Origin: Escherichia phage vB_Ec-M-J
DNA: 64,000 nucleotides
Sequence record: OQ718158.1
Strand: one strand, 5' to 3'
Positions 22,884 to 58,561 of the stretch are shown here, one piece after another. Made by a program: the position numbers and the translations under genes. Position 1 is the stretch's first letter. Each line of letters starts with the position of its first letter. The notes under the pieces are model-generated. The model had not been told where the DNA came from and did no database searches. It was given only the letters and a program-made list of their open reading frames with translations.

Positions 22884-22896
22884 TTTTTTCTCCTTA

Positions 22897-24045: not shown

Positions 24046-24116
24046 AATTCCCTCCTTTATTCATTATACTATATTTAATCAAAAAGAAAAGCCAGTACTC
24101 AAGTACTGGCATTATC

Positions 24117-25295: not shown

Positions 25296-25370
25296 ATATT
25301 TTTCCTCCTTTATTCATTATACTATATTTAATCAAAACGAAATGCCAGCACTCAAGTACTGGCATTATTG

Positions 25371-26561: not shown

Positions 26562-26631
26562 ATTTTCCTCCTTTATTCATAATACTATATTTAACCAAAA
26601 AGAAAAGCCAGTACTTGATACTGGCGTAATG

Positions 26632-27774: not shown

Positions 27775-27850
27775 AATTCCCTCCTTTATTCATTATACTA
27801 TATTTAATACAAAAAAGAAAAGCCAGCACTCAAGTACTGGCATTTTAATT

Positions 27851-28999
27851 TTAACGAGGTATAACTATTTTTTTGAATAATCCAGTATTTCCTGCATTTT
27901 CTTCTTCATATGGAATTGTACCCATACCAGCAGTTCTGCCACCATTCCCTGAACCATACAGTTCTCCATTCTTAATCATGAATGTTATCATATAACCATG
28001 TGTCATTTTATCATATGGAACTGGTTCAGTTATATTATTACATGCTCGCCATGTACTAATAACACTAGAGTTCGTTATACCATCACCTGATGCGTTTCCT
28101 CGACCAGCGAAATACCATATCCCACCTGCTCTAACGTGTGCTTCATAATTAGAACCACCTATGTAATCAATCGCAGTACTAGGAATACTAGAAGCTGGTA
28201 TCTTTGTGATTGTTCTAAGACTGTTAATAGTGCCATTAGTACCATCACCCAACTGTCCATATATTTGTGAACCGAATACATATAGCCCATCACTCTTTAA
28301 TACGTAATTAGCACTATATGCATTTTCTGAATTTACCTGTAATACTCCAGTAGTAACAGTAGTCAATGTGGTGGTAGTTGTACCAGTCGAACCAATACTA
28401 GATTTATTCCCACTGTACTTTAATATTCCATTATTGTATAATACAAATGAAGCATTATCAGCGGTTACACCAATATCTTTAACATCAACTTCTGGTGTCA
28501 ATGTCAGTACTGATACTCTTTGGTCAACAGCCCCAGTAAAAACTTCACCGTTGTTATTGTAACCCATCTTATATAATTTATTATCTATTGTTAATAATAA
28601 TGTAACGCCGTTTCCTATAACTATTTTACTATATGTGTCATTCACATCATCAAAAATACCAAGTATTTCTGTCCATACACGATAAGTAGTATTAACACCA
28701 CGATAGATTTGAGCACCAGTACTCCACCATGTGCCATCATTTTTACGTACTAATATTCCATGTGTATTACCAGTAGTCCAAAATTCCTTTACATCAGTTA
28801 AACATAAAACCCACTCTTCAACTATAGTAGGAGAACTACTACCAGTACCTAATTGATAGTAAAAATTATGCCCTCTGCCATATAATCTTCCGTCTTCTAA
28901 TAAAATAAACACATTATTCTGTAAAACTTTTACCATCTTTATACCAACTGGCACAGGTGCTTCATTCCCATAATCAAACATTCTAACAAAAGGTAACAT
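27851..28999 (-). CDS. beta-propeller protein, RCC1-like, leader MLPFVRMFDYGN
   Basis: 382 aa; motifs YYQLGTGS, YGQLGDGT. Confidence 0.8.
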   Translation of the reverse strand: MLPFVRMFDYGNEAPVPVGIKMVKVLQNNVFILLEDGRLYGRGHNFYYQLGTGSSSPTIVEEWVLCLTDVKEFWTTGNTHGILVRKNDGTWWSTGAQIYRGVNTTYRVWTEILGIFDDVNDTYSKIVIGNGVTLLLTIDNKLYKMGYNNNGEVFTGAVDQRVSVLTLTPEVDVKDIGVTADNASFVLYNNGILKYSGNKSSIGSTGTTTTTLTTVTTGVLQVNSENAYSANYVLKSDGLYVFGSQIYGQLGDGTNGTINSLRTITKIPASSIPSTAIDYIGGSNYEAHVRAGGIWYFAGRGNASGDGITNSSVISTWRACNNITEPVPYDKMTHGYMITFMIKNGELYGSGNGGRTAGMGTIPYEEENAGNTGLFKKIVIPR

Positions 29000-29070
29000 A
29001 TTTCCCTCCTTTATTCATTATACTATATTTAATTCAAAAAGAAAAGCCAGTATCAAGTACTGGCATTATG

Positions 29071-30180
29071 TTATTTTGGTAAATCAATTTTAGTAAAGAC
29101 TGCAACATCCTCGCTTGCCCCTGGGATGGCGTAATAAGAACCAGTACTATATACATCTCCGTCTTTTGTTAATATTGAAGTTAAACCATCACTAAAAAGA
29201 ACATCACTAATCTCACTAACTGAAACAGGTAATTGTAAATTAGTAGCACTATATATTGCACCAGTTTGAGAATTGTTTAATCCCAAACCACGGTTCGCCC
29301 CAACACCCTTCTGATATGTACTAGTAATTATAATTTGTGTAGCAGTATTTAATGCAGGTGAATTCGTCATAAACAACGGAGAACTATTAGGCAAAGAACT
29401 TACAGGAACTGCACGAAATGTAGTTGTATCTGAACTAAGAAAGTTTGGCGTTTGACCACATACGAAATATGATGTACCATTATAGTAATTAAATGCATTA
29501 CCACCTATAGCTGCATCTATTACTCCAGTACTACGTAATCCCCACGTGTTAATTTGTGTTCGGTTCCCCGTGCCATGCTGACCCCTGTCATTCCACCCAG
29601 AACTATATAACTTATTATCTAATGTAATATACATACTGTCATTTGAATTCGTCATTACTTTACGCACATTAGTAGCACATTGAGTTAATGTGTAAATTGA
29701 TGATGAACCAATACCTAAAGCACCACGATATCCATTAGCCCCTGCACCATAGAGTACTGAACTAGTGCTAAGTACAAATATTAAACCATACGAACATACT
29801 ATATCAGCAATTTCATTTACCGATAGTACACTCGTAAACCACGCAGTCCTATCAACTAATACAGTACTGTAAGAAGTCCCAGTAGAAGACGAAAACCAAT
29901 AAGTCTCACCAGCAGTCCATATAGTATTGTCACTCTTAATAACAACAACTGTACGATCACCAGCAAAAAAATTAGTAACTTCTGTACTCACTAATCTCCA
30001 TGAAGATACAGTGTTGGTATTACCATTTCCAGATTCACCACCTTGATTTCTACCTATGTAATATAAATCATGTGAATCAGTCAATAAGAATTGACCCTGT
30101 GTAGACGCACCAACTTTTATTATATTTTTAGGACCAGGTGTGATATTCCCATAATCAAACATTCTTACAAAAGGTAACAT
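29071..30180 (-). CDS. beta-propeller protein, RCC1-like, leader MLPFVRMFDYGN
   Basis: 369 aa; motif RGQHGTGN; only 10 nt from upstream paralog (co-transcribed). Confidence 0.8.
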   Translation of the reverse strand: MLPFVRMFDYGNITPGPKNIIKVGASTQGQFLLTDSHDLYYIGRNQGGESGNGNTNTVSSWRLVSTEVTNFFAGDRTVVVIKSDNTIWTAGETYWFSSSTGTSYSTVLVDRTAWFTSVLSVNEIADIVCSYGLIFVLSTSSVLYGAGANGYRGALGIGSSSIYTLTQCATNVRKVMTNSNDSMYITLDNKLYSSGWNDRGQHGTGNRTQINTWGLRSTGVIDAAIGGNAFNYYNGTSYFVCGQTPNFLSSDTTTFRAVPVSSLPNSSPLFMTNSPALNTATQIIITSTYQKGVGANRGLGLNNSQTGAIYSATNLQLPVSVSEISDVLFSDGLTSILTKDGDVYSTGSYYAIPGASEDVAVFTKIDLPK

Positions 30181-30190
30181 ATTTCTCTCC

Positions 30191-31321
30191 TTAATTTAAT
30201 AATGCCCCTGGCAAATCCACTTTGACGAATTGTGCATATGCTGAGGAATTTTGATCAAAGTTTGGTCCCAATCCATAAAATGAGCTAATGCCGTCTTCAT
30301 TTGTGTATATGATATAAACGTTCTTTACATCATTTCCGCATATAAATCGAATGTCTTTCGTTTGTGTTCCCGCTGGAACATTACGAAGGTTCACAACGCC
30401 ATTACTTGCATTGTTATCAGCCGACGCAATTGGTAATTGATTTTGACCATATTGACCACGCATATTTTTTGCATCTAAACCAAACACAGTATCTGATACC
30501 GCACCAACTTTCAAAAATGAACCAAAACTATTATTGAATGACTTTGGAAATGTACCACTATAAACACTTCTCCCATCTGATAATACCGCTGAACTGAATT
30601 TCCCGCTATTCGATATGGCAAATTCATTGTAAGGAAGTGTACCCATTTTGGTATATACAGAATATGAATTAGTGGAAGTATTATCAATAATCTTATTACC
30701 ATTATATCCAATACCATACTGGTATCCGTCTGCATCTTGAACTATACACAAAGGACCACTTGGGGTTTGTGTCAACGAAACAACACGTTCAACTTGTATA
30801 TCACCAAATGTATTTCTTCGCCATGTTCTATCTATTATAGTACTAGTATTACCCAAAGATAATGCCACACTATATAATAGATTGTTTTCAGTAAAAATGG
30901 CAACATAATATGCGTGGTTAATAACTTGCTTCATCCCAGCATCAATAACTTCCTGTGGAATATGATCAGTAACATCCAACCAATCAAGGTTAGATGATGC
31001 AATATCTGGAGTACTGAATTTGTCAAATCTAGTTGAGCCACAAACTAGCACTCTATCATCATTTGTCAAAGCCACTGTGCTAGTCTGCATATTAGAACTG
31101 AATGATTTAACATTACTAATGTTAGACTTGTACCAACCCTTATCAGCAGCACCCACCGTGAATCCGGTTCCCATTGATCCACTTGTACTTGTACCATAAG
31201 CCCACATCTCACCACTATATGTTAGTGCCATACAGTGGCTTCCATTTGCTTGGAAATCCTTTATACCAGTGGGAGCAACCACTGTATTCCCATAATCAAA
31301 CATTCTAACAAAAGGTAACAT
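30191..31321 (-). CDS. beta-propeller-like protein, leader MLPFVRMFDYGN
   Basis: 376 aa; same leader; variant upstream cassette. Confidence 0.75.
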   Translation of the reverse strand: MLPFVRMFDYGNTVVAPTGIKDFQANGSHCMALTYSGEMWAYGTSTSGSMGTGFTVGAADKGWYKSNISNVKSFSSNMQTSTVALTNDDRVLVCGSTRFDKFSTPDIASSNLDWLDVTDHIPQEVIDAGMKQVINHAYYVAIFTENNLLYSVALSLGNTSTIIDRTWRRNTFGDIQVERVVSLTQTPSGPLCIVQDADGYQYGIGYNGNKIIDNTSTNSYSVYTKMGTLPYNEFAISNSGKFSSAVLSDGRSVYSGTFPKSFNNSFGSFLKVGAVSDTVFGLDAKNMRGQYGQNQLPIASADNNASNGVVNLRNVPAGTQTKDIRFICGNDVKNVYIIYTNEDGISSFYGLGPNFDQNSSAYAQFVKVDLPGALLN

Positions 31322-31398
31322 AACTAATTCTCCAAATTCAAATAATTATAATGTATTTACAAAAAAAATACCAGCACATATTTCAGTACTGGTATCAT

Positions 31399-32580
31399 TT
31401 ATGGTAAAATGATAGATTGTAACGAACTCATACCCAATGCTGGAACACTAGCCTGTGGTGCTGGAGAATTCAATTTTGGTGATGAAACCGCATATGACAT
31501 TCCTGAACCCAAATCTGGATCAAAAACTACAGCACAATAATTCCCACTATATATAAGTCCATTCTTGTATCCTTGTGCACTTTGAATGCATTTCGTGAAC
31601 GTACCAATATCTGTAGTGGCATTTATTAAGTTCCTCCCACGATAACCGCAGGTGTATATGAAATTATCATCGCCTATGTACATACTAGAATCCCCAGAAG
31701 AACTACATAGATACGACATATAAGCACGCATGTTTTTAGGAGCAACTGACAATGTACCTGCATAGAATTTATTATTCGAACCCGTAATATCACCATCACC
31801 CAATGCACCAAAACTTCCCCAGCCAGTACCATAATATCTCTTATCACTCAAGAATATAATACAGTTGTTATTACACATCTTGACTTGATATATCAATGAA
31901 GGATCAACCCCAGGGAATGATTCAGTGTATGTTAGAACAGCCAGATCAGTACTAGCATTACATTGATGATATGTATTAGTACCAGCGGACAAGATTGTTC
32001 CATTAGCTAACAGAATTCTCGCAGTACCAGTACCAGCAGTACAAGCAACTGCACTTCCTGCACTTCCGGTGTATATTTGTCTGAAAGTAAAGAAACCAAC
32101 AGTTTTACTTCCCTGCCCACTCCAACCAGTATTATCAACTCCACACGCCCATACTGAACCATCTTGCATGATCATCATTACACCAAAGCGTTCTATTGAA
32201 ATATAAACAATCTTCGTTGTATCAACTGCACTAAATCTAGAAGTTATATCAGTCCATACCTTAACACTTACCGCCGTCGCACTGGAAGTAGGATCTTCAC
32301 CAGCTATCATTATCCTCCCATTGTTAGTAAGATACATTGTCTGACTATAACCAGTACTACAAAACTTAACACTATCAGTCTCTGGAACTTTTAACCACTC
32401 GTTGTAACGTGTTACGTTAGTGTTATTACCTAACTGATAATAGTTATTCATCCCAGATACATATAACACACCATCCTTTATTAAACTATAAGTCGCACTA
32501 TAGTCACTACAGGTATAACGTGTACCCACAGGTCGCTCAACGACGTTCCCATAATCAAACATTCTAACAAAAGGTAACAT
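31399..32580 (-). CDS. beta-propeller protein, RCC1-like, leader MLPFVRMFDYGN
   Basis: 393 aa; motif YYQLGNNT. Confidence 0.8.
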   Translation of the reverse strand: MLPFVRMFDYGNVVERPVGTRYTCSDYSATYSLIKDGVLYVSGMNNYYQLGNNTNVTRYNEWLKVPETDSVKFCSTGYSQTMYLTNNGRIMIAGEDPTSSATAVSVKVWTDITSRFSAVDTTKIVYISIERFGVMMIMQDGSVWACGVDNTGWSGQGSKTVGFFTFRQIYTGSAGSAVACTAGTGTARILLANGTILSAGTNTYHQCNASTDLAVLTYTESFPGVDPSLIYQVKMCNNNCIIFLSDKRYYGTGWGSFGALGDGDITGSNNKFYAGTLSVAPKNMRAYMSYLCSSSGDSSMYIGDDNFIYTCGYRGRNLINATTDIGTFTKCIQSAQGYKNGLIYSGNYCAVVFDPDLGSGMSYAVSSPKLNSPAPQASVPALGMSSLQSIILP

Positions 32581-32653
32581 AATAAAATCTCCGTAATTAA
32601 ATTATATAGTATTTACAAAAAATACCAGTACATATTTCAGTACTGACCTATTA

Positions 32654-33775
32654 TTAAAAGGGCAACGGTAACTCAGTAAAAGTACTTACGTCCGGTAAAC
32701 CATACATTGAATTAGCATCACCACAGTAATACCACTTCGTAGAATCATGTACCACCGATAAACGCTGTGCACATAACACTTCCTGTATGTCATTAAACAC
32801 CATCGGGACTAACTCATATGTATCCGCAAATGAAGATACACCACCACTCGCATGAAAAGTATTCGTCCCAGCATAAAATAACTGATTAGTGTTCTTACCC
32901 ACAGCAAATGTCATCAATATCCCATCATTCTCCCATAAAGAAGAAAACTTATCAACACTACCAGAAAGCTCTGTGTAAGTACTCGTAATGGCACTCGCAG
33001 CCGCCGCATTACCCATCTGTTTATTCAAGTTCTGTCCAGCAATAAAATATCTCGTGCGTGCACTAGAATCAGTATATAATAACCCAGTGTTCGTAGTCAT
33101 CATTCCAATGTCCTTAATCGTCATACCAGTCTGTGAATAACTTAGATACGAAGTTAAACTACCATTATTACCCAACGAACCGTTATCACTCATGCCACAA
33201 CGATGTAATATACCACTTGTATCAACGTAGATAGTACTAACTAAACTCGTATACAACTCTTGTACATTATTCGCAATAAACACAGCAGTCGCCTTATTAC
33301 TAACCCCACCAAATGATAGGTTATTATCAAATCCCTTAGCGTATAATTGATTATTAGTAGTCAATAATCCAATCGTGAAATAAGACATTTTCATATCCCT
33401 TACTGTACTCAAATCTACTGCCCCAAATTGGTGCGTAACATCTGTCCATGTGAAAATCTGTGCACTACCAACACCACCCGTTTCAAACCATTTGTCACCA
33501 CAGTACAATATGCGATTACCCTTAGTAAAGATAACTGTTACCAATCCACTACCACACGCAAACTTTACATCACTTCTAACCTTCGTCCAATCAAGTACAT
33601 AGGTAGTGGTGTTATTACCTATACCTAACTTGCCATAACGGTTATAACCACGCACCCACAAATCACCACTCTTAGTAATTAATAGTAATGCGTCTCCTGT
33701 ACTTATTATTCGAAATCCCGAACTAGGATCAGGTACTTCATTTCCATAATCAAACATTCTAACAAAAGGTAACAT
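32654..33775 (-). CDS. beta-propeller-like protein, leader MLPFVRMFDYGN
   Basis: 373 aa; conserved leader and cassette. Confidence 0.75.
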   Translation of the reverse strand: MLPFVRMFDYGNEVPDPSSGFRIISTGDALLLITKSGDLWVRGYNRYGKLGIGNNTTTYVLDWTKVRSDVKFACGSGLVTVIFTKGNRILYCGDKWFETGGVGSAQIFTWTDVTHQFGAVDLSTVRDMKMSYFTIGLLTTNNQLYAKGFDNNLSFGGVSNKATAVFIANNVQELYTSLVSTIYVDTSGILHRCGMSDNGSLGNNGSLTSYLSYSQTGMTIKDIGMMTTNTGLLYTDSSARTRYFIAGQNLNKQMGNAAAASAITSTYTELSGSVDKFSSLWENDGILMTFAVGKNTNQLFYAGTNTFHASGGVSSFADTYELVPMVFNDIQEVLCAQRLSVVHDSTKWYYCGDANSMYGLPDVSTFTELPLPF

Positions 33776-33848
33776 ATATCCCTCCTTTATTCATTATACT
33801 ATATTTAATCAAAAAAGAAATGCCAGTACTCAAGTACTGGCATAGTAT

Positions 33849-34976
33849 TCAAAAAGGTAAATCAATTTGCTTAGTAATAATAGTATCTAACGGTATTGAA
33901 CACAATGAGAAATTCTTTCCACCCGTATTTTCAGGATTATATCCATTCATCCATACATTATTACCTTCGTAAAATGTATTCCAGTATAAAGACCCACTAT
34001 ATCGTGTATTCGAATTGAACGATGTAAAATTGAATTCTTGAAATGCTGTAAAATATGGAAGGGAACTTGAACTACTTCCCGTAAATGGGGTATGCCCAGT
34101 TGCTATTAGTTTGTTTGTATCTGCATTAATTAAAAATACAACACTAGTCGAATAGTCCAACGAATCAGGATGATATATATTACTCATATCACCTATAGTA
34201 AAACCAACATCAAAAACTTTACTATGTGCACCACTACCAGCAAAAGTAGTTCCAGTTGCATATATTTTATTATCAGATGTTATCATTACAAAACCAACAC
34301 CAGAAACAAAACTGCATTTTATATCATAAGATATATCATCAAACAACGGAACAAATGTGGTTGCATCACCCGATGTTGCTTTAACTTGAAAGCTGTTATT
34401 TGAACCTGAACCATATACAGTTCCATCGTTTTTAATCTTAAACAATGTATCGCCAAGGTAACCGCCAAATATATTATCCACATTAGTGTCAAGTACAGTC
34501 CACGCTGAAACATAATTTTTATGTCCTAAACCTAATGTACCACTTCGATTCCATCCTCTTCCATAAAGTGTTCCGTCTTTCATTAATATAAATGCTGTAT
34601 AACCACATAACATTTTTTTAATTTGGGTAACATCTATACCAGTGAAATACACAGCCCAGTCAGTATATCCTTGTTGGAAAGTATTAGAATTCGTGAATGC
34701 ATATGTTGAACCTGAACCATATATTTTATCACCTTTAATAACAACGGAAAACGATCCTAACCATAAGTCATCAACTTCAGTTGTGATTTGTTGAACTGCT
34801 CCTAACGATACAAACTGTGTACTTAAACCCGCATTATAGTTTGAATCTTCACCGTGTGCATATACAGTGCCATCTTGCATTAGAAACATTTCAAGAGTGT
34901 AACTAACAACACTTTTCTTTATATTATTAACTTCGATTATATTCCCATAATCAAACATTCTAACAAAAGGTAACAT
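33849..34976 (-). CDS. beta-propeller protein, RCC1-like, leader MLPFVRMFDYGN
   Basis: 375 aa; motifs YGRGWNRSGTLGLGH, YGSGSNNS. Confidence 0.8.
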   Translation of the reverse strand: MLPFVRMFDYGNIIEVNNIKKSVVSYTLEMFLMQDGTVYAHGEDSNYNAGLSTQFVSLGAVQQITTEVDDLWLGSFSVVIKGDKIYGSGSTYAFTNSNTFQQGYTDWAVYFTGIDVTQIKKMLCGYTAFILMKDGTLYGRGWNRSGTLGLGHKNYVSAWTVLDTNVDNIFGGYLGDTLFKIKNDGTVYGSGSNNSFQVKATSGDATTFVPLFDDISYDIKCSFVSGVGFVMITSDNKIYATGTTFAGSGAHSKVFDVGFTIGDMSNIYHPDSLDYSTSVVFLINADTNKLIATGHTPFTGSSSSSLPYFTAFQEFNFTSFNSNTRYSGSLYWNTFYEGNNVWMNGYNPENTGGKNFSLCSIPLDTIITKQIDLPF

Positions 34977-35045
34977 AATTCCCTCCTTTATTCATTATAC
35001 TATATTTAATCAAAAAAAGCCAGTATCAAGTACTGGCATATTAAT

Positions 35046-36194
35046 TTACTGCAAAAATGACATATCGACTTCTGTATAATTAAGAACGTTCTGTCCAGAA
35101 ATACCACCCATTACTACTATTGCAAGGCCACAATAATATAATTTTCCAGTATCAGTAAGTATAAGTGAACCAGATGGGGTGCGTACCAAATTACAAGAGG
35201 TATTAAACGAAGTATATGAAGGAGTATAGGAGTACTGATTAATATTATTACCAACACCTAATTGACCAGACGCGTTGCTTCCAGATGCATAAAGTACTTC
35301 ATCACCTTTAACTATATGTGATGCCATGTTACCAACACAAGTATATAAACTATAAACACCTGCACTCAATAATGTGGGGGTTTTATATTGTATATCAGTA
35401 GAAGAGGAAGTACCACCTGTACCAAATTCGTTCCCATATTGTGCACCGAACTGTTTACCACAAGCGTACAAATTATTATCCGATTTGATAAAAAATGTAC
35501 TCTGATAACTTACATTAAAATCTATAACATCCGAAGAAATCATCGTCACCCCAGTAATAGAAGTTTGATTACCCGTGCCCAACTGGTAGTAATAGTTAAA
35601 ACCACAACCCCATAAAGTATTATCTTCTCGCAAATAAATGTTACCAACTGCCTTTTTAACCGAAGTTATAGTATCTACTCTTTTGAATGTGTTAAAAGAA
35701 TTAATGTTTGTGCCATCACCAAATGATGATATGTTCGATATATTGTTAGCTCCACAACAATACAATGTACCATCGTTTGTTATCAAATTCACCTTCATAT
35801 CATAAAAACTACTCATGTATTTTATATCAGAAACATTAATACCACTTGATGTTATCCACGTAGTACAGTCCGTCCACAAAGTTTTTCTATCAGTTACACC
35901 AGTGAATGCCTTCGTGTTACCAGTGATAAAAACTTTTCCAGTACCTTTCTCTTCATACAATTGACAATCACTACTGTTATCTTCCAATAGAACTCGTTTA
36001 ACATTCTCCGCACAAAGAATAAATTTACTCGATGCTACACCTGTACCAGTACCCCAATTCGTCGCAGAAGATGCATACAACTTATCAGTATAAGTATCAT
36101 GAAGATACATAGAATCACTGGAATATATTTTAAAACGCCCAGAGTTGGTAGGTGCTTCATTCCCATAATCAAACATTCTTACAAAAGGTAACAT
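35046..36194 (-). CDS. beta-propeller protein, RCC1-like, leader MLPFVRMFDYGN
   Basis: 382 aa; motifs YYQLGTGN, SGQLGVGN. Confidence 0.8.
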   Translation of the reverse strand: MLPFVRMFDYGNEAPTNSGRFKIYSSDSMYLHDTYTDKLYASSATNWGTGTGVASSKFILCAENVKRVLLEDNSSDCQLYEEKGTGKVFITGNTKAFTGVTDRKTLWTDCTTWITSSGINVSDIKYMSSFYDMKVNLITNDGTLYCCGANNISNISSFGDGTNINSFNTFKRVDTITSVKKAVGNIYLREDNTLWGCGFNYYYQLGTGNQTSITGVTMISSDVIDFNVSYQSTFFIKSDNNLYACGKQFGAQYGNEFGTGGTSSSTDIQYKTPTLLSAGVYSLYTCVGNMASHIVKGDEVLYASGSNASGQLGVGNNINQYSYTPSYTSFNTSCNLVRTPSGSLILTDTGKLYYCGLAIVVMGGISGQNVLNYTEVDMSFLQ

Positions 36195-36206
36195 ATTTCC
36201 TCCAAA

Positions 36207-37112
36207 TTATTTAAAAACATACTGCGTATTAACACGTGTCCCGTTGTCGTAACCAAGTACGTAAAATATTTCAGCACTATTATTAGAGCCAAATAATGCA
36301 CCAGTACTATTACTCAACGTTGTATTGATAGCTAATGGTATCCATTTGTTTTGCTCGGCATCATATTTTAATAAATTTAATGCACCATAAGATACTGCAT
36401 ATATACCTTTGTCATATCTATTGTAAATTATCTTACTAGGGTTAGCTCCACCAACTGCTGCCATTCTTGACCAAACCGCACTCTCTATGTGATATTTTTG
36501 TGCAGGAGTAGATCCTTGTCCTGTAAAATATATGTAAGTACCATCAGTGCACATATCACCACCACCATTGTTTGTTGTATTCCCAGTAGTACCTAACGAT
36601 GTCCATGTATTAGTACTCGGCGTATAACTATATAATGCAGTATTAGACGGTGAACCCCACAAATATATCTTATCCCCTGTAGTAATCATCTTACTATATA
36701 CTGCCTGGTTAGGTTTGCCAACACTTGTATTATTCAGTGTCCATGTATCAGAGCTTATGTCATATACATAAAAATTATTATTAGCAACATTCGCTGCACC
36801 TAAACCACCGAACAAATATATTTTTCCTTGATAGGCACACAATGCACTTCCATAGGTGGATACTGGTGGTGATGATAATTGTACCCATATTCTAGAATTT
36901 AAATTAAAACTCCATAACTGATTATCCTGGTTCGAAGTATTCATTATACCACCAAATATATAAGCAGTATTTCTTGATGCATCATACGTATAACCAAAGT
37001 TATTTCGTGCTGAAGGTACTGGTGATGTGGTAAATTGAGTTCGTATACCACCATTTGGGGCTGGTAATGGAGCTTCATTCCCATAATCAAACATTCTAAC
37101 AAAAGGTAACAT
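36207..37112 (-). CDS. Kelch-type beta-propeller protein with the same leader MLPFVRMFDYGN
   Basis: track ORF trimmed to MLPF start; Kelch-like blades YIFGG, IYLFGG, IYLWG, YIYFTG. Confidence 0.75.
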   Translation of the reverse strand: MLPFVRMFDYGNEAPLPAPNGGIRTQFTTSPVPSARNNFGYTYDASRNTAYIFGGIMNTSNQDNQLWSFNLNSRIWVQLSSPPVSTYGSALCAYQGKIYLFGGLGAANVANNNFYVYDISSDTWTLNNTSVGKPNQAVYSKMITTGDKIYLWGSPSNTALYSYTPSTNTWTSLGTTGNTTNNGGGDMCTDGTYIYFTGQGSTPAQKYHIESAVWSRMAAVGGANPSKIIYNRYDKGIYAVSYGALNLLKYDAEQNKWIPLAINTTLSNSTGALFGSNNSAEIFYVLGYDNGTRVNTQYVFK

Positions 37113-37159
37113 ATTTCCTCCTTTATTCATTATATCATATTTACCCCATAAACAAAACC

Positions 37160-37188
37160 CTTGACATCCTTTCAGTACTGGTGTACTA
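37160..37188 (+). promoter_or_regulatory. sigma70-type promoter for the plus-strand small-gene array
   Basis: TTGACA-N17-TACTAT in divergent region between Kelch gene start and array. Confidence 0.55.
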
Positions 37189-37214
37189 TAGAAGGAATAC
37201 AAGGAGAACTACAC

Positions 37215-51935: not shown

Positions 51936-52145
51936 ATGCTTACTGTACAGGATAAGATCGACATCTTAAAGGTTAATATGTATGTGATTGATGCAGTACC
52001 TGGTAAAGTATTTGCCTACGATGACACCACTGTAAGCGATTTCTACTATAGCCAGGCCGTGGGGGATCTTTCTGTACAGTCGGTTATTGAAAACGTAGTT
52101 AATGCAGCGTATGAGCATTTACTTTCAAATAGTACTTGCAATTAG
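51936..52145 (+). CDS. small ORF (hypothetical)
   Basis: 69-aa ORF; stop falls inside next promoter. Confidence 0.5.
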   Translation: MLTVQDKIDILKVNMYVIDAVPGKVFAYDDTTVSDFYYSQAVGDLSVQSVIENVVNAAYEHLLSNSTCN

Positions 52146-52214
52146 TTTTTAAACGCGTATAATGTTTTACATGAAGGGGAGAAATGATTCTCCCCACTAA
52201 TTAAGGAATATGAA

Positions 52215-52361
52215 ATGAAAGCATCAAAAAAGAGTACTAACAAGAAAGCACGTTCAACCTTAGATGGGGTATTCCCTTTACGTTTCGTTGATGAAGTGGT
52301 TTCCTACCCGCCTGGCCTTACTCCTGAGATGGTAGAAAGTTTGCGTAAATCTAAAAAATAG
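52215..52361 (+). CDS. small basic ORF (48 aa)
   Basis: hand-found ORF below track threshold; own promoter and hairpin. Confidence 0.45.
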   Translation: MKASKKSTNKKARSTLDGVFPLRFVDEVVSYPPGLTPEMVESLRKSKK

Positions 52362-52442
52362 TACTTGCAATTAGTTTTTAGTACTGTATAATGTTTTACA
52401 TGAAGGGGAGAAATGATTCTCCCCAATAACAGGAGAAACAAA

Positions 52443-52595
52443 ATGAAACAATACAACGCTCGGTTTGATGTTACTATCGGTAACGGCAAAGGTCAATTCT
52501 CTTTCAGTACTCGCAAAAGTTATACAGAAAACTTCCTGCGTAATTGTGCACTGACCGCCGCACAAATTAAACATTACTTTCAGGCTAAAAAATGA
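52443..52595 (+). CDS. small ORF (50 aa)
   Basis: track ORF trimmed to ATG after promoter and hairpin. Confidence 0.5.
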   Translation: MKQYNARFDVTIGNGKGQFSFSTRKSYTENFLRNCALTAAQIKHYFQAKK

Positions 52596-52681
52596 AATCA
52601 TTAGCTTACTATAGTTCTGCGGTGATCGGTGCATTGATCGCGGCGTTGTTAGTAACCTATCTATTCTTTATGGTGATTTAA

Positions 52682-52825
52682 ATGAATCCAACAGGTTTAA
52701 ACTATAAAAGTTGTTCGGCGTTTACGAAAGCAAATAAAGCGAATGCACGTAAAGCGAAAGTACAGGAATACATCAAGCAAGGCATGACGCGAAAAGCGGC
52801 GATTATAAAAGCTAAAAATAAATGA
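52682..52825 (+). CDS. small basic ORF (47 aa)
   Basis: hand-found ORF; preceded by a 29-aa hydrophobic mini-ORF at about 52592..52681. Confidence 0.4.
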   Translation: MNPTGLNYKSCSAFTKANKANARKAKVQEYIKQGMTRKAAIIKAKNK

Positions 52826-52831
52826 AAAAAG

Positions 52832-52862
52832 TGGTTGACTCCGGTCAGCCATTTTGCTATTA
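52832..52862 (+). terminator. fused terminator-promoter module, UCCG-loop variant
   Basis: GGTTGAC-TCCG-GTCAGCC then TTTTGCTATTATAT. Confidence 0.55.
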
Positions 52863-53036
52863 TATATTCATTGAGAGATAGCTCACTAGCCCACAGGGTG
52901 CATAAGTGTATCTATTATATGAGTATTGAGTACTGAAAACTATTTTTAAAAAGTACTTGCAAACTATCTCAATAAGCGTATAATGTTTTACATCGAGAGG
53001 GGGAAACGGTTTCCCCTGGTAATAAGGAAACAAATC

Positions 53037-53378
53037 ATGACTATCTCAATTGCTCAATCTAACTTTGAAAATGAAATCATCGCCCAGGCACTGCGTTTAA
53101 ATGATGGTCGGGCCGAAATTAATTACGGTTTCAATTCAGGCGGTTGCGAAAACTATCAGTACTTTGTAACGGCTGATGGCGGTGTCCTGGGTATCAATAC
53201 AGTTATTGTAAACATCCAAAAAATTAATTTCAATGATCCAGACGATAGCCAGTTTTACATCACTGGCGTAGACGTGAACTATGAGGATGACTCACTAACT
53301 GATGATCACACTGGCGAGCGGTTAGAAAGTGCATACGGTGAAGATGATTATCAGTCCGGTCCAGAAGATTTCGAATAA
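53037..53378 (+). CDS. small acidic early-type ORF
   Basis: track ORF trimmed to ATG after promoter and hairpin. Confidence 0.55.
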   Translation: MTISIAQSNFENEIIAQALRLNDGRAEINYGFNSGGCENYQYFVTADGGVLGINTVIVNIQKINFNDPDDSQFYITGVDVNYEDDSLTDDHTGERLESAYGEDDYQSGPEDFE

Positions 53379-53473
53379 TATAAAAAATAGTTTGACAATA
53401 GATTATAGTACTGTATAATTAATTACATCAAGGGGAGAAAAACTTCTCCCCACTAACAGAGAGAGAAAACAAA

Positions 53474-53686
53474 ATGGCTAATATCCGGTCGAAATTAAAA
53501 AATGCAAAACAAGTTTTATTTTCAGATCATGAATACTTTAATAAAGATATTACAGGAGTTACAAGTATCAAGGAAGTAAAAGAAAAAACCGGCGTTTTGT
53601 GTGATGTGCGATTAGTTGGGACATTTGGGAATAACGTGCTATATCGCTGCGGTGATTACAATTTTACACTGACTATCATTAACTAA
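53474..53686 (+). CDS. small early-type ORF (hypothetical)
   Basis: behind TTGACA-variant promoter and hairpin. Confidence 0.55.
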   Translation: MANIRSKLKNAKQVLFSDHEYFNKDITGVTSIKEVKEKTGVLCDVRLVGTFGNNVLYRCGDYNFTLTIIN

Positions 53687-53769
53687 AAATATTATCACAG
53701 TACTATTGACATAGTTTGATAGTACTGACATAATAACTTTTATCAACTACACTACTAAGGAATTAAAAA

Positions 53770-53949
53770 ATGGCTATCATCGCAAAAACTGAAATCGTTG
53801 GTCTGGATTCTATCATCATGACGTTTGAAGATCAAAAAGGTATGTATGTAGTTTCCTATGGTGATTATGTTCGGGAGTATGAAACGGTAGACGAAGCCTT
53901 TGAAAGTTATATTCGCCAGGTGAATAAAGCATACGACGACTACCGCTAA
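53770..53949 (+). CDS. small ORF (59 aa), loosely similar to 50632..50844
   Basis: hand-found ORF below track threshold; behind class-B promoter; N-terminal MAII. Confidence 0.45.
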   Translation: MAIIAKTEIVGLDSIIMTFEDQKGMYVVSYGDYVREYETVDEAFESYIRQVNKAYDDYR

Positions 53950-54048
53950 AATATATTACCAGTACTATTAAATCTATTGACAACGTTTGATAGTACTGTA
54001 TAATAAGTTTTATAAACAGTAGTTAACTTAACCTAAGAGAGAAACAAA

Positions 54049-54192
54049 ATGATCGCACTGGATTCATTCATCGACGCAGTACTGGCAAAAACTGGCGAGG
54101 ATCTGACCGCAGAACAATACGCGATGATCGAGCAATGTCAGCAAAACGGTAAATCGGTGAAAGATACTGTTAAGATTATCCGCAAGATGTAA
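54049..54192 (+). CDS. small ORF (47 aa)
   Basis: hand-found ORF; class-B-like promoter upstream; terminator hairpin downstream. Confidence 0.4.
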   Translation: MIALDSFIDAVLAKTGEDLTAEQYAMIEQCQQNGKSVKDTVKIIRKM

Positions 54193-54198
54193 TATTAT

Positions 54199-54226
54199 AG
54201 CCCACTGGTTAACGCTGGTGGGCTTT
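54199..54226 (+). terminator. terminator-like hairpin containing a Chi octamer
   Basis: AGCCCACTGGTTAACGCTGGTGGGCT then TTT. Confidence 0.5.
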
Positions 54227-54297
54227 AATCATTTACCCTATACAATGCCAGTACTAAACCGTTTATCTCGTTAGAATGCGTTACAGGACGTTTGACA

Positions 54298-54495
54298 ATG
54301 ATTAGCATGAAATCAGTACAAAAACAAATAGAAACATTATCAAAAATTAAACGTAAACAATACTCGTTAGAATATACAATCAATGGTAACTATCATCTAA
54401 TGAAAGAAAATAATTTTATAGTCATTGATGAATCATTGCAAGTTATTAGTATAGTACTGAAAGCATTAATTAATGATAGAAAAAAATTAAAATAA
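54298..54495 (+). CDS. small AT-rich ORF (hypothetical)
   Basis: track ORF (TTG) trimmed to ATG; composition differs from neighbours. Confidence 0.4.
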   Translation: MISMKSVQKQIETLSKIKRKQYSLEYTINGNYHLMKENNFIVIDESLQVISIVLKALINDRKKLK

Positions 54496-54823
54496 TTGTT
54501 GACATACAATGCCAGTACTGGCATAATACTTACATCAAGACGAGAACGTCACTAACCCATAGGGTGCACAAATGTAACTATATAATATCGATCAATAAAT
54601 GATCAAAAAAGTACTGGATCAATTTAGCATAAGGAGTATAATTCTGATCAATTCTTGATCAAAGGCAATATACGCAGTTGAATTTATATAGACAGTACAA
54701 AGGCGTTACTATCCGTGGTAATGCTGATGGATATGTAGTATCATACGGTTTGAATAAGATAAGCACTAGTAGTATTATTGTAGCATTACAGTACTATAGT
54801 ATTTTTATAATGAGGTTAAAATA

Positions 54824-55081
54824 ATGGCTGTTGGATTCGCGAAGGACGGGGCCGAGCAAGACGAGATTAACGCAGTTATTCAGGCCGCTGTAAACCACGC
54901 TAGAACGCAAATTAACGCACAAATAGAATCACTGATACATTGCCTCGACTGTGGCGATAAAATCCCTGAGAATCGCCGCCAGGTCGTTAAGGGGTGTAAG
55001 TACTGTATCACTTGCCAGGAGGATCATGATAGTACTTTTAAACGTCAACCGCGTAATTGTTGGCATAGATCTATGAGATAA
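54824..55081 (+). CDS. TraR/DksA-family-like C4 zinc-finger protein
   Basis: CLDCG...(17 aa)...CITCQ, the CxxC-N17-CxxC spacing typical of TraR/DksA. Confidence 0.55.
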   Translation: MAVGFAKDGAEQDEINAVIQAAVNHARTQINAQIESLIHCLDCGDKIPENRRQVVKGCKYCITCQEDHDSTFKRQPRNCWHRSMR

Positions 55082-55144
55082 AAAGTATTGACAGTACTAT
55101 CCAGTAGTGTATAATGTTTTATATCTTAACTGAGGATAGAAATC

Positions 55145-55501
55145 ATGGGAATACAACATATCACGCGTACTACTGACAATGGCGAGATCACTGGCTATCA
55201 AGTACAGGGCAAAGTAGCACAATTGCAGTACTGGTTTGTTAAACGTGGAATCATTGCACCGGATCTTGATTATGACCGTGTAGCGTTTATTGATTCTCTT
55301 TATGTTGATCCTGATAGTCGGGGGAATGGTGAAGGTAACGAATTAATGAATGCCTTTATTGATGCCGCCGATGATTCAGATTGTATCATCTTAGAATGCG
55401 ATACGGGAGAAGATAACGCCTTTAATCTTAAAGAATGGTATGAAGGTTTCGGATTCGAGGTACTGATCGATAGTGAATATCCTATCATGATTTTATCATA
55501 G
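55145..55501 (+). CDS. small GNAT-like acetyltransferase (putative)
   Basis: LYVDPDSRGNGEGNELMNAFIDAA resembles GNAT acetyl-CoA-binding motif A. Confidence 0.4.
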   Translation: MGIQHITRTTDNGEITGYQVQGKVAQLQYWFVKRGIIAPDLDYDRVAFIDSLYVDPDSRGNGEGNELMNAFIDAADDSDCIILECDTGEDNAFNLKEWYEGFGFEVLIDSEYPIMILS

Positions 55502-55580
55502 TACTTGCATTTAGTTTTCAGTACTGTATAATAGTTTACATGAAGGGGAGAATAGTTCTCCCCACTACAAGGAAAGACAA

Positions 55581-55769
55581 ATGGAAAACTTATCAAGTAT
55601 TTTAGTACAAGATGATTTCGGTAATCCTGGAAGTGCTATCATTGTTCGGGGTAATAAAGCAACGTTTGTTATTGCTGGTGGACCCGTACAGCGTAGCATT
55701 AAAAATAATGCTGTTACCATTAATAATGTACGCTATCGCTTAGATAAAGAATTAATTCATAAACTGTAA
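55581..55769 (+). CDS. small early-type ORF (hypothetical)
   Basis: behind class-A promoter and hairpin. Confidence 0.55.
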   Translation: MENLSSILVQDDFGNPGSAIIVRGNKATFVIAGGPVQRSIKNNAVTINNVRYRLDKELIHKL

Positions 55770-55855
55770 AAAAGTACTGGACAATAGATTATAGTACTGT
55801 ATAATAAGTTACATGAAGGGGAGAAAATGATTCTCCCCACTAAGAGGAAAGAAAA

Positions 55856-56068
55856 ATGCAAGGTCAACTAATCGTTCGTAAATGGTCTGATACTAACGCT
55901 AAACCGTGGGATGTACAATACATCGCCCCCAATGGTGAATCCAGATATCAACCAGGTGTAACGCATAGTACTGAGCAATTCGCCGCCGCTCATCGTGAAC
56001 GTCTGTTACAATCAATGCAGCAAGGTTTCGGTGAAAAATTCATTCAGGATCATTGGCTGAAAGATTAA
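55856..56068 (+). CDS. small early-type ORF (hypothetical)
   Basis: behind TTGGACA-type promoter and hairpin. Confidence 0.55.
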   Translation: MQGQLIVRKWSDTNAKPWDVQYIAPNGESRYQPGVTHSTEQFAAAHRERLLQSMQQGFGEKFIQDHWLKD

Positions 56069-56154
56069 AAAGTTCTTGCACAGTACTGAATAAAGTGTAT
56101 AATGTTTTATATCGAGAGGGGAATAGTTCCCCTCCTAACAAAAAGGAAAGTATA

Positions 56155-56328
56155 ATGATCCAAGTAGAATTATCAGTACTGAAAGATCTATTTTATCGGT
56201 TAGGTACTAATGGCGAGTATCCTAAAAGTGATACCGCAAAACTTTTTGTATCACTCGACTTATGGCAACGCGAACAATTAGTAATGTCGTGGCGTAAAGG
56301 TAAAGCAGATCGCGAGGTGAAAGCATGA
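56155..56328 (+). CDS. small early-type ORF (57 aa)
   Basis: track ORF trimmed to ATG after promoter and hairpin. Confidence 0.5.
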   Translation: MIQVELSVLKDLFYRLGTNGEYPKSDTAKLFVSLDLWQREQLVMSWRKGKADREVKA

Positions 56329-56474
56329 AAGAATTCTTATTTGAAGTAGTGTTTCAAGGTGTCGGTAGTAACCAACTGATTCGCTCAAGTGGTTACAATG
56401 TTAACCAGGCATGGAATAACATTAAACAAATGTACCCGAACGCTATCACATATCGCAACCCGAAAGAAGTTTAA
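56325..56474 (+). CDS. small ORF (49 aa), translationally coupled
   Basis: hand-found ORF; ATGA overlap; followed by terminator/promoter module. Confidence 0.45.
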   Translation: MKEFLFEVVFQGVGSNQLIRSSGYNVNQAWNNIKQMYPNAITYRNPKEV

Positions 56475-56488
56475 AAATAATTGAAAAA

Positions 56489-56521
56489 GGGATTGACTCC
56501 GGTCAGTCCCTTTGCTATTAT
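56489..56521 (+). terminator. fused terminator-promoter module, UCCG-loop variant
   Basis: GGGATTGAC-TCCG-GTCAGTCCC then TTTGCTATTATAT. Confidence 0.6.
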
Positions 56522-56656
56522 ATACGCATAGAAACAAATTAGCCCACCGGGTGCATAAATGTATCTATTGTTTGCTGGTGGCTAGTACTATCAAGTACTG
56601 AAAACTATTTTTAAAAAGTACTTGCAAAGTATCACGATAAGCGTATAATGTTTTAC

Positions 56657-56729
56657 ATCAGGACGGGGAACGAAACAAGTAACCCCGTTAAGTAGTCCAG
56701 GAGTAAGACATACGAAAAACTCCCCTGAT
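56657..56729 (+). ncRNA. candidate structured leader or small RNA, copy B
   Basis: about 90% identical to copy A, with stem-preserving differences. Confidence 0.35.
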
Positions 56730-56798
56730 AAAATAGTTTGACAATAGAAAGTAAACGAGTATAATACTTACATCAACCACTGATAAGGAAACATTAAA

Positions 56799-57074
56799 AT
56801 GCGGATTCTACTGACAGCTAACGAAATCGAACAAGTACTGACTACTAACCTGGAAGACTGGAAACGTGAAGCAGATATCCAGGCGGTTCAATGGCTTAAT
56901 GATAAGTTAACGCCGGATGATTTAAGTAAGATTGTAGATCCTCAATTCTACGAAGATATTCACGACACCGCGTTAAGCGTCGAGGATGTACTTGATAAGC
57001 ACTACATTGATACTGATTTACATGTTTACGGTCGTAAAAACTTTATCACTATTCACGACATTTACAATACTTAA
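56799..57074 (+). CDS. small acidic early-type ORF
   Basis: downstream of duplicated dual-promoter cassette. Confidence 0.55.
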   Translation: MRILLTANEIEQVLTTNLEDWKREADIQAVQWLNDKLTPDDLSKIVDPQFYEDIHDTALSVEDVLDKHYIDTDLHVYGRKNFITIHDIYNT

Positions 57075-57160
57075 GTATTGACAAAGTATCTTAGTACTGT
57101 ATAATAGTTTACATCGAGAGGGGAAACGGTTCCCCTCCTAACAAAGAGAGAGAAATAAAA

Positions 57161-57343
57161 ATGGCTAAGTGCACTATCTGCAAGAAAGAAATAGTATTAG
57201 TTCCAAGTGCCCGTGAACGTGCCGCTCGGTTTGGTGGCAAAGCGTCAGACTATACAAAAATGTTTACTGCCCATACAGCTTGCCAGGTAGCAAAACGTTC
57301 ACAAGAAAGCGTAGAATTAATGCGTAAACTTTCCAAAAAATAA
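57161..57343 (+). CDS. small early-type ORF with Cys pairs
   Basis: CTICKK...HTACQ; behind promoter and hairpin. Confidence 0.55.
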   Translation: MAKCTICKKEIVLVPSARERAARFGGKASDYTKMFTAHTACQVAKRSQESVELMRKLSKK

Positions 57344-57430
57344 GTATTGACAAAGTATCTTAGTACTGTATAATAGTTTACATCAAGCGAGGGGAATGGT
57401 TCCCCTCCTAACAAAGAGAGAGAAATAAAA

Positions 57431-57754
57431 ATGGCTATGATCCTTACCCAGAAAGTAGAACTGAAAATTGTAACCTCCTTTGACATTAACGTTAATCGGT
57501 GGACTGATTCACACGGCAATACTTACCACTCTTGCTACGTGTCTGCGTTAATTGGCGACCGCTGGGAAGACCTGGGACACGAAACCTTTACATACGGTTA
57601 CGGTACACAAGGCGAATACACGGGCTTGGAGATCATTAAAGAAACCGTTATAGGTTTCAACCCGAAAGAAAAAGTTATTCACCGCATCGAGGAAGAGATC
57701 AACAAAGAAATAACAGTTCGATACAACGATGTAAAACGTAAGAAAGACATGTAA
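57431..57754 (+). CDS. small early-type ORF, paralog of 50934..51257
   Basis: shared RWTDSHGNTYHSCYVS and VKRKKDM; upstream region duplicated from 57161 gene. Confidence 0.65.
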   Translation: MAMILTQKVELKIVTSFDINVNRWTDSHGNTYHSCYVSALIGDRWEDLGHETFTYGYGTQGEYTGLEIIKETVIGFNPKEKVIHRIEEEINKEITVRYNDVKRKKDM

Positions 57755-57849
57755 TAGAATCCATTTAAAGTACTATTTGACATTGCCCAGATAGTACTTT
57801 ATAATAGACTCTAACTTGTAGTACTAACTCAACTAATAGGATGTATACC

Positions 57850-58245
57850 ATGATTACTAAATTCTACGCTACCCGTGAAGCTGCCCGTATTGTTGCACGC
57901 GAGGAAGGAGCAGCATTTAAAGACATGGGCAAAGATGCACCGAAAGGTCAACGCTGGGCCGTACAGTTCAAAGAAATCTCTGATATTGTGAATTCACCTG
58001 AGCCAGTACTGACAGCAGCAGAACTAAAACGAGCGGATATGCTGGCGGCAATACTTGACGCACAAGATGAGTTTATCGCTGATTCTGATATCAAAGTACA
58101 GGTAAACCACACCGCATGGACTCACGCGGATCACCTGGCAAACCTTAAGCGTCCAAGTGAACTGATTCGCAACCAGAAAGAGATCCGACACGACCGTAAG
58201 GGTAATCGTGTAACAGTATACAGTAAACGCCGCCAGGTTATCTAA
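57850..58245 (+). CDS. small early-type ORF, paralog of 45336..45602
   Basis: start set by paralog alignment; shared FYATREAARI...RKGNRVTVY; terminator follows. Confidence 0.6.
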   Translation: MITKFYATREAARIVAREEGAAFKDMGKDAPKGQRWAVQFKEISDIVNSPEPVLTAAELKRADMLAAILDAQDEFIADSDIKVQVNHTAWTHADHLANLKRPSELIRNQKEIRHDRKGNRVTVYSKRRQVI

Positions 58246-58267
58246 TAACTTGCAGTACTAACAACAC

Positions 58268-58292
58268 GGCGGGATCAGTTCCCGCCTTTTTT
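58268..58292 (+). terminator. rho-independent terminator
   Basis: GGCGGGATCAGTTCCCGCC then TTTTTT. Confidence 0.7.
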
Positions 58293-58306
58293 ATAGGACA
58301 AACAAC

Positions 58307-58561
58307 ATGATTAAGGTTCAACTATCAAACGATAATGTATTACGGGTACACTATAAAGCACCTCAGAGAATCATCACAAAGGCCGTACAGCTTGCTAATG
58401 AGTTTATTAATGGTAACCTATTACCTAGGAAGTTAAGCAACGGGAAACTGCGTGTAATCGACGTGGACACTAACAACAGGATAGTAATCGAGAACACAGG
58501 AAAGATAAACCTTTATGAGCATCAACAATACAATAAGAAAATAAAACTAATATCACGTTGA
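58307..58561 (+). CDS. small ORF (hypothetical)
   Basis: 84-aa track ORF; AGGA RBS. Confidence 0.5.
   Translation: MIKVQLSNDNVLRVHYKAPQRIITKAVQLANEFINGNLLPRKLSNGKLRVIDVDTNNRIVIENTGKINLYEHQQYNKKIKLISR

Follow-up and report, generated by a model that had tools for sequence, protein, structure and literature searches.

In a 64,000-nt stretch of Escherichia phage vB_Ec-M-J DNA (record OQ718158.1; the whole stretch is referred to as the window), two adjacent genes encode an 85-residue C4 zinc-finger protein and a 118-residue protein of the GNAT family, the mini-GNAT. Both genes are on the + strand, inside a one-directional run of short open reading frames (ORFs), and the zinc-finger gene has a GAGG Shine–Dalgarno sequence at 54812..54815, 8 nt upstream of its ATG. 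The coordinates of the genes, their motifs and the surrounding elements are collected in Table 1. The original prediction had taken the first gene for a TraR/DksA-family factor and the second for an ORF with a GNAT motif-A-like segment. We found that both assignments hold and can be refined, the first to the YbiI branch of the DksA/TraR superfamily and the second to a minimal form of the GNAT fold.

Table 1. Features of the zinc-finger and mini-GNAT locus, in window coordinates
Feature	Position	Strand	Description
Sigma-70-type promoter	54499..54527	+	TTGACA-17-CATAAT with TG extension, 11/12; nearest strong promoter upstream of the zinc-finger gene
48-codon ORF	54678..54824	+	TTG start; TAATG overlap of its stop with the zinc-finger ATG; a hypothetical ORF in Turkey3 and PBECO4
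Degenerate copy of the early-promoter module	54785..54811	+	ATTACA-GTACTATAGTATTTT-TATAAT, 15-nt spacer; read from the sequence by comparison with 55088..55115
Zinc-finger gene	54824..55081	+	85 aa, ATG start, stop included; DksA/TraR/YbiI-family C4 zinc finger
N-terminal tip	54824..54859	+	codons 1–12, MAVGFAKDGAEQ, contains D8 and E11; mean identity 0.96
Zinc knuckle	54941..55015	+	C40-x2-C43-x17-C61-x2-C64; includes I47-P48-E49 and R51-R52
Basic Cys/His tail	55037..55078	+	codons 72–85, FKRQPRNCWHRSMR (FKRxPRNCWHRSMR); mean identity 0.93; low model confidence
Perfect sigma-70 promoter	55088..55115	+	TTGACA-GTACTATCCAGTAGTG-TATAAT; drives the GNAT gene
Mobile GNAT cassette	~55110..55525	+	-10 element, leader, ORF, stop plus AGTACT; boundaries uncertain by ~15 nt
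Mini-GNAT gene	55145..55501	+	118 aa; ribosome-binding site GAGGA at 55132..55136
GNAT motif A	55319..55336	+	codons 59–64, R-G-N-G-E-G; acetyl-CoA pyrophosphate-binding loop
W98-Y99 codons	55436..55441	+	invariant in the family; at the 'LY' position of motif B

The cysteine pattern by which the zinc finger had been recognized, CLDCG-N17-CITCQ, is exact in the translation, which reads C40-L-D-C43-G, 17 residues, C61-I-T-C64-Q. The protein scores 43.9 bits against Pfam PF01258 (zf-dskA_traR; gathering threshold 24.9, E = 2.3e-11) and matches PHROG 54, 'DksA-like zinc-finger protein', with an E value of 1.8e-18. The closest solved structure by sequence is E. coli YbiI (2KGO, E = 8.7e-12), which is collinear with the phage protein over residues 1–70 in the phmmer alignment, followed by TraR in its RNA polymerase (RNAP) complexes (5W1S and 6N57, E ~3e-6). 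An AlphaFold2 (AF2) model built from 46 sequences has moderate confidence (pLDDT 72.8) and contains a helix at residues 7–32, the zinc knuckle and a short helix at 62–68; residues 69–85 are conserved, non-helical in the model and at pLDDT 50–61. When this model was searched against the PDB with Foldseek, 2KGO came first, then TraR (6N57_M and 5W1S_M), then DksA. Furthermore, the top NCBIfam model is the YbiI equivalog NF008243/PRK11019, on which residues 1–74 align to positions 1–73 of 88, and the score on the DksA_like model is just 17.9 bits (cutoff 105). The 85-residue protein is a bona fide member of the DksA/TraR C4 zinc-finger superfamily, with its nearest relatives in the YbiI branch and not in TraR or DksA. 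It does not pass the strict markers of TraR, and the curated equivalog boundaries exclude it from YbiI and TraR alike.

A word-index search with this protein returned 46 clusters of 84–88 residues (one of 145), and conservation was computed over 45 phage-type homolog clusters. The four cysteines are invariant in all of them, as are I47, P48, R51, R52, G57 and Q65, and E49 is kept in 98%. The most conserved segments of the family are its two termini, neither of which is present in TraR; the intervening segments 13–39, 40–65 and 66–71 have mean identities of 0.59–0.71. The YbiI-like branch spans jumbo and T4-like phage genomes at 64–95% identity, with T4-like examples in Citrobacter phage Moon, Yersinia phages MHG19 and fHe-Yen9-01 and E. 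coli phage vB_EcoM_RZ. By tblastn, the wider family occurs in 959 phage records, about 168 of them at 60% identity or higher, and the lambda Orf73 region is matched at 47% identity over residues 29–75. The gene is intact in PBECO4 (NC_027364.1; 94% protein identity), where it lies between gp253 and gp252 and has no RefSeq coding sequence. Related GenBank records already call it 'TraR/DksA C4-type zinc finger protein' or 'DksA-like zinc-finger protein'.

One protein that might have been taken as proof of an autonomous C-terminal tail module was rejected. This 54-residue Mosigvirus protein (PHROG 25948; seen in vB_EcoM_SA35RD), which matches residues 60–85 only, is an in-frame deletion chimera: its first ~25 residues are those that begin an unrelated 68-residue Mosigvirus protein, p000v gp223, without any difference, and its second part is the C-terminal 26 residues of the zinc-finger protein. 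The chimera is found in about 26 phage records at 90% identity or more and is a recombination or deletion scar at a hyperplastic locus.

The closeness to YbiI bears directly on function, and one reading is that the phage protein acts as cellular YbiI does, possibly in a metal- or stress-related process and not through RNAP. YbiI is the nearest relative and sits in an iron-related operon, and the invariant Cys and His residues added in the phage family (H25, C79 and H81) could make a second metal site. The GC content of the gene, 0.47 vs 0.36 for the window (0.45 vs 0.40 for the Dhakavirus copy and its locus), is consistent with a host-like origin and with capture of a host-like gene. We nevertheless consider this reading improbable, as metal homeostasis fits poorly with the broad conservation in lytic T4-like and jumbo phages, and the RNAP contact residues of the TraR type are invariant in the phage family. 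YbiI itself, when produced at a high level, rescues the auxotrophy of a dksA null strain, according to a 2009 remark (data not shown), beyond which a full-text literature search on YbiI function gave nothing.

The contacts between TraR and RNAP have been described by cryo-EM. The N-terminal helix of TraR threads the secondary channel, placing S2 at 4.3 Å from the catalytic Mg2+, the globular domain rests on the rim helices of beta-prime, and the C-terminal helix touches the beta lobe-Si1. R48 is important for binding to the rim helices, and the contacts with beta-prime Si3 are made by E46, R49 and K50, whereas D3 and D6 of the DxxDxA motif shared by TraR and Orf73 are required for activity and dispensable for binding (residue requirements are drawn from the 2019 eLife and 2022 mBio papers). 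TraR-family homologs with imperfect motifs or N-terminal extensions retain RNAP binding at lower activity, RNAP binding and inhibition of rRNA promoters were seen with all five of the phage TraR homologs tested, and Orf73 increases lambda yield 3- to 4-fold (burst size). In the phmmer register, R27, I30, N31, A32 and C40 of the phage protein correspond to R24, I27, N28, A29 and C37 of TraR, and its N-terminus reaches 3 residues beyond that of TraR. The equivalents of TraR R48-R49, E46 and I44-P45 are R51-R52, E49 and I47-P48, all of them invariant except for E49. Given the conservation of this IPE-x-RR patch, docking on RNAP is the best-supported functional inference for the protein, which is most likely a secondary-channel binder that reprograms or shields host RNAP. 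We infer the 'RNA-polymerase modulator' label of the original prediction from homology.

For the adjoining ORF, the GNAT motif A noted previously is R59-G-N-G62-E-G64, and the 118-residue protein passes three Pfam models: Acetyltransf_1 (PF00583; 37.2 bits vs a cutoff of 20.7), Acetyltransf_7 (PF13508; 33.5 vs 27) and Acetyltransf_10 (PF13673; 26.3 vs 23.6). The DksA/TraR and GNAT profile matches of the two neighbors therefore both lie above curated thresholds. The Acetyltransf_1 match spans profile positions 53–116 of 116 only. A word-index search with the mini-GNAT returned 2 clusters only; an exhaustive HMMER search of 1.84 billion representatives recovered 290 relatives at E ≤ 1e-3, mostly of 115–145 residues and aligned end to end. 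In the family alignment, Y18, G62, G64, W98 and Y99 are invariant, and G17, N29, R59 (at least 90%), D86 and E89 are nearly so. The Tyr of GNAT motif B is often the general acid.

The GNAT fold is present in the AlphaFold model of the mini-GNAT (pLDDT 83.6, pTM 0.74), whose elements run beta(3–9), beta(13–21), alpha(25–33), beta(45–54), alpha(63–74), beta(80–84), alpha(95–101), beta(105–108) and beta(114–117). In this model the canonical beta1-alpha1-alpha2 arm is missing, and residues 1–44 fold into two strands and a single helix. The alignment to solved GNATs covers at most 105 residues for any structure and 89 for the best three matches. The family profile reaches the 93-residue YjdJ (E = 3.1e-5), and BFVD contains many uncharacterized viral GNATs of 104–127 residues with the same fold. 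Hence, the 118-residue protein is a minimal GNAT, and its acetyl-CoA motif is intact. Related records already annotate the gene as 'acetyltransferase' or 'GNAT family N-acetyltransferase', and Turkey3 as 'PaiA acetyltransferase'; like the zinc-finger protein, the mini-GNAT is an ordinary addition to a known family.

The company kept by the relatives of the mini-GNAT bears on what it may modify. Multidomain relatives join the GNAT to ART-PolyVal (E = 4.9e-25) and NUDIX (P0110), to a PARP-like ART and ParB_N (P0063), to ParB-C (P0056), to Amidoligase_2 (P0115) or to DUF5661 (P0075 and P0176). Solo members are found on phage-like contigs adjoining a family-B DNA polymerase, and one of them adjoins an 1860-residue protein with faint ART and GNAT matches. 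Iyer et al. 2017 described a RimI-like GNAT family in the polyvalent proteins of gammaproteobacterial phages, typically beside ART, with solo versions, and predicted its members to be protein modifiers. The relatives of the mini-GNAT match this polyvalent-protein module, the correspondence with the Iyer family being by description and not by accession. From these associations, the mini-GNAT is most likely an active acetyl-CoA-dependent N-acetyltransferase whose target, early in infection, is a host protein; our confidence in the class of substrate is modest.

The mini-GNAT is found by tblastn in 24 phage records only, and the two genes are distributed separately. PBECO4 and Salmonella phage SD-2_S15 carry the zinc-finger gene at 94% identity and no GNAT; in a three-way alignment, the PBECO4 promoter TTGACA-GTACTATCCAGTAGTG... 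stands directly before the next gene. Conversely, Shigella phage SF1-1, with an unrelated 146-kb genome, encodes the GNAT at 96% protein identity with no adjoining zinc-finger gene. Apart from short promoter and leader motifs, SF1-1 aligns to the window across the cassette only, with homology that starts at the -10 element and stops at the stop codon plus AGTACT. The junctions fall in repeated promoter sequence, so the exact ends of the cassette are uncertain. Judging from these alignments, the GNAT is a mobile cassette that has a promoter of its own and repeated promoter sequence at its borders. A conserved functional pair was considered and rejected, since PBECO4 and SD-2_S15 are without the GNAT, and SF1-1 and Klebsiella phage 05F01 are without the zinc finger; the separate distribution indicates that the genes are independent neighbors and not a system. 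Within the window, tblastn found no paralogs of either protein. We also observed that, in tblastn with the mini-GNAT, seven records of 366–384 kb (CRJP21, E9.1, JP4, ELP-22, fEgEco12, WPEC3 and WPEC5) are each matched in two places, which suggests a second, more distant GNAT copy in those genomes.

The genomic setting is compatible with an early region. The best relative of the segment 53000..57000 in megablast is Escherichia phage Turkey3 (98.3% identity, 100% query coverage); this segment matches 54 phage records in all, including PBECO4, 121Q-type phages, slurp01 and Salmonella phages, with genomes of ~310–386 kb in the genus Asteriusvirus. These matches assign the window to an Asteriusvirus-type E. 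coli jumbo phage. Most short ORFs of the run have a consensus sigma-70 promoter upstream. Seven perfect (12/12) TTGACA-N16/17-TATAAT sites lie in 52000..58500, all on the + strand, and the + strand also holds 13 of the 13 perfect sites of the whole window. In the Rak2-like jumbo phage CBB, clusters of RpoD-like promoters ahead of short ORFs have been read as an early region that depends on host RNAP. Furthermore, what is left of the zinc-finger gene in one Mosigvirus record is preceded, in the tk-rI-mobD region, by an annotated early promoter of the T4 type. From the promoter pattern, early expression of both the zinc-finger and the GNAT gene is plausible.

Taken together, we favor, with a probability of about 0.6, the reading that the locus holds two independent early cassettes, one for a phage-adapted RNAP binder of the YbiI branch and the other for a minimal GNAT that acetylates a host protein. 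In the scheme we propose, the jumbo phage would depend on host RNAP, and the N-terminal helix of the 85-residue protein would insert into the secondary channel, where it would alter initiation kinetics or bar DksA/ppGpp and the Gre factors. The result would be that host RNAP is moved off rRNA-type promoters and toward phage promoters. Separately, the mini-GNAT would acetylate a host protein soon after infection.

Several observations weigh against this reading. The zinc-finger protein reaches neither the YbiI equivalog cutoff (NF008243, 80.1 bits vs 96) nor those of the TraR subfamily (TIGR02419, 51.5 vs 59.7; NF010268, 32.4 vs 108). The DxxDxA motif of TraR is not present in register, its D3, D6 and A8 falling on A6, G9 and E11 if the helix is continuous, and no long C-terminal helix like that of TraR (residues 58–73, which contacts the beta lobe-Si1) is predicted, only the short helix at 62–68; residues 69–85 could fold upon binding. 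On the enzyme side, the mini-GNAT is strongly acidic, with a pI of 4.05, which also fits a polyamine or another small cation as substrate.

The loss of DxxDxA in register, with the rim-helix and Si3 contact residues conserved, is what would be expected of a passive plug or competitor in the secondary channel, one that excludes DksA/ppGpp, GreA/GreB or Rnk with no TraR-like allostery and might, for example, let phage transcription escape the stringent response of the host. The aspartates D3 and D6 of TraR are needed in function and not in binding, and purely competing channel binders do exist, Rnk being one. However, the tip is the most conserved segment of the protein, which argues for a specific action. 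The family also has a near-invariant D8-x-x-E11 pair that, two residues out of register and followed by a variable position 13 (the A of the motif), is reminiscent of the acidic pairs found in TraR and in Gre factors. A purely passive role is therefore unlikely in our view. The precise output of the secondary-channel binder on transcription is uncertain and may differ from that of TraR, because its tip and tail are unlike those of TraR. More tentatively, the proteins of the ~170 T4-like and jumbo phage records might constitute a distinct class of secondary-channel factor, an overlooked takeover factor with a mechanism other than that of TraR or DksA. The basis for such a class may be the Gly- and aromatic-rich invariant tip MAVGFAKDGAEQ, together with a basic Cys/His tail in place of the lobe-binding helix, and its mechanism could be direct occlusion or remodeling of the active site, or a second metal site.

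The acidity of the mini-GNAT leads to the alternative that its substrate is not a protein but a small molecule, for instance a polyamine, a metabolite or an aminoglycoside-like antibiotic. The PaiA label in Turkey3 agrees with this, as do weak NCBIfam matches to AAC(6') and ArsN-type resistance enzymes, all of which are far under cutoff; the best of the weak NCBIfam matches is RimI, which acetylates a protein N-terminus. With relatives that sit in polyvalent proteins beside the protein-modifying ART, and with the literature placing the GNAT family in a RimI-like clade, a small-molecule substrate is doubtful, and a host protein remains our preferred target. A special case of protein acetylation would be an anti-defense enzyme of the AcrVA5 type, which inactivates a host immune protein. 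A sequence-level link between AcrVA5 (6IUF) and the mini-GNAT was not detected, and relative to AcrVA5 and the YjdJ type the mini-GNAT has ~25 extra residues, including the family-specific helix 25–33 and the invariant G17-Y18; we hold such a function to be quite improbable.

TraR-like proteins of a conjugative plasmid and of temperate phages are proven direct reprogrammers of host RNAP, and a 2021 comparative review of host takeover by jumbo phages does not mention DksA or TraR. Because the YbiI-like branch is conserved in phages at 64–95%, with invariant termini unlike those of TraR, our results suggest that well-studied groups of T4-like and jumbo phages carry an unstudied secondary-channel factor. 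Work on the phage branch could also lead to what YbiI does in E. coli. With the mini-GNAT, a further accessory cassette with promoter borders is seen to move between phages that are not related; it is akin to polyvalent effector modules and is a candidate host-protein-modifying or counter-defense enzyme. Both proteins are concrete and cheap targets for biochemistry.

Upstream of the zinc-finger gene, the degenerate copy of the promoter module lies too near the ATG for an mRNA carrying the ribosome-binding site, and is therefore probably a relic. By the same argument, transcription of the zinc-finger unit probably starts at the 11/12 promoter farther upstream, with a leader of ~290 nt; no terminator-like sites were predicted on the + strand between that promoter and 55501. 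The 48-codon ORF in the leader may not be a gene, and its coding status is doubtful: we saw no convincing ribosome-binding site for it, and Salmonella phage SD-2_S15 has another, shorter ORF annotated at this position. No tRNAs or structured RNAs were found near the locus. The untranslated leader upstream of the zinc-finger gene also contains five GATCAA/TGATCAA motifs in 73 nt (54590..54662), in a window where GATC is rarer than expected (136 observed vs 250). This cluster could be an operator or a Dam/SeqA-related element.

Other repeated sequences were observed in the window. The most strongly over-represented hexamer of the whole window is AGTACT (288 occurrences vs ~22 expected by base composition, or 13-fold), usually in the form cAGTACTg, spread over all of the window and denser at 36–64 kb. 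It occurs within the spacers of early promoters (TTGACAGTACT...) and directly after stop codons; a binding site for a phage protein and a recombination joint are both possibilities. Stem-loops of the form GGGGAGAA-loop-TTCTCCCC lie between early promoters and ribosome-binding sites at 55545..55563, ~52417..52438, 53443..53468 and 55831..55853, and were placed on the minus strand by the terminator scan. Two hairpins with a 12-bp stem (AAAGGGATTGACTCCGGTCAGTCCCTTT and a variant), at 52828..52855 and 56486..56513, overlap the -35 TTGACT of promoter-like sites. Far from the locus, 18633..37202 on the minus strand holds a tandem array of ~15 head-to-tail ORFs of 331–399 residues each, presumably paralogs.

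The layout of the locus, with RpoD-type promoters before clusters of short ORFs, is the same as in Rak2-like phages. The cassette architecture also recalls the PeSLs of T4-like phages, promoter/stem-loop motifs that mediate modular gene shuffling. As with PeSLs, the junctions of the GNAT indel fall in repeated early-promoter sequence, and stem-loops follow several promoters in 5' leaders; the repeat TTGACAGTACT...TATAAT is specific to the present phage group, and the analogy is one of architecture. The GNAT modules of Iyer et al. 2017 are parts of large multidomain proteins predicted to be delivered with the DNA, whereas the mini-GNAT is solo and has its own promoter. It also differs from minimal GNATs of the YjdJ type (5I0C), scoring below the cutoff of Acetyltransf_CG (19.4 vs 30). 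Rac of phiKMV-type phages (LUZ19 gp28) is a phage GNAT that shuts host transcription down via the RNAP alpha subunit, and a jumbo-phage survey predicted such GNATs to act like Rac on RNAP or on the translation apparatus. As Rac is tied to RNAP, so the mini-GNAT adjoins a likely RNAP-binding factor, although this adjacency is not conserved. Homology to Rac was rejected, as none of the 24 phage records is from a Pseudomonas phage at the sensitivity of tblastn.

The zinc-finger protein shares with DksA the Pfam zinc-finger domain and, by homology, the RNAP binding site. DksA is otherwise different, being a ppGpp-dependent protein of 151 residues with a two-helix coiled coil, whereas the 85-residue protein has a single helix and is without the ppGpp-site context. 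With TraR, lambda Orf73, P2 Orf82, VP882 Orf61 and VHML Orf8 it shares an N-terminal helix followed by a C4 globular domain, as well as carriage by mobile elements of Proteobacteria, those of phages being predicted to divert host RNAP. It departs from TraR in that a 14-residue conserved basic Cys/His tail replaces the long C-terminal helix, and the TraR homologs that have been tested are those of a conjugative plasmid, of three temperate phages and of one likely prophage, whereas the present subfamily is that of T4-like and jumbo phages. Its likeness to E. coli YbiI extends to the N-terminus MAxG[F/W]AxD, the C4 knuckle with IP-x-x-RR, the length (88 vs 85 residues) and an extended basic tail ending in R. 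Phage E11 and H25 are V and R in YbiI, and the phage tail PRNCWHRSMR stands against NRRGSKDSQLR in the YbiI-like P0046, an intermediate form that combines a phage-type N-terminus with a YbiI-type tail.

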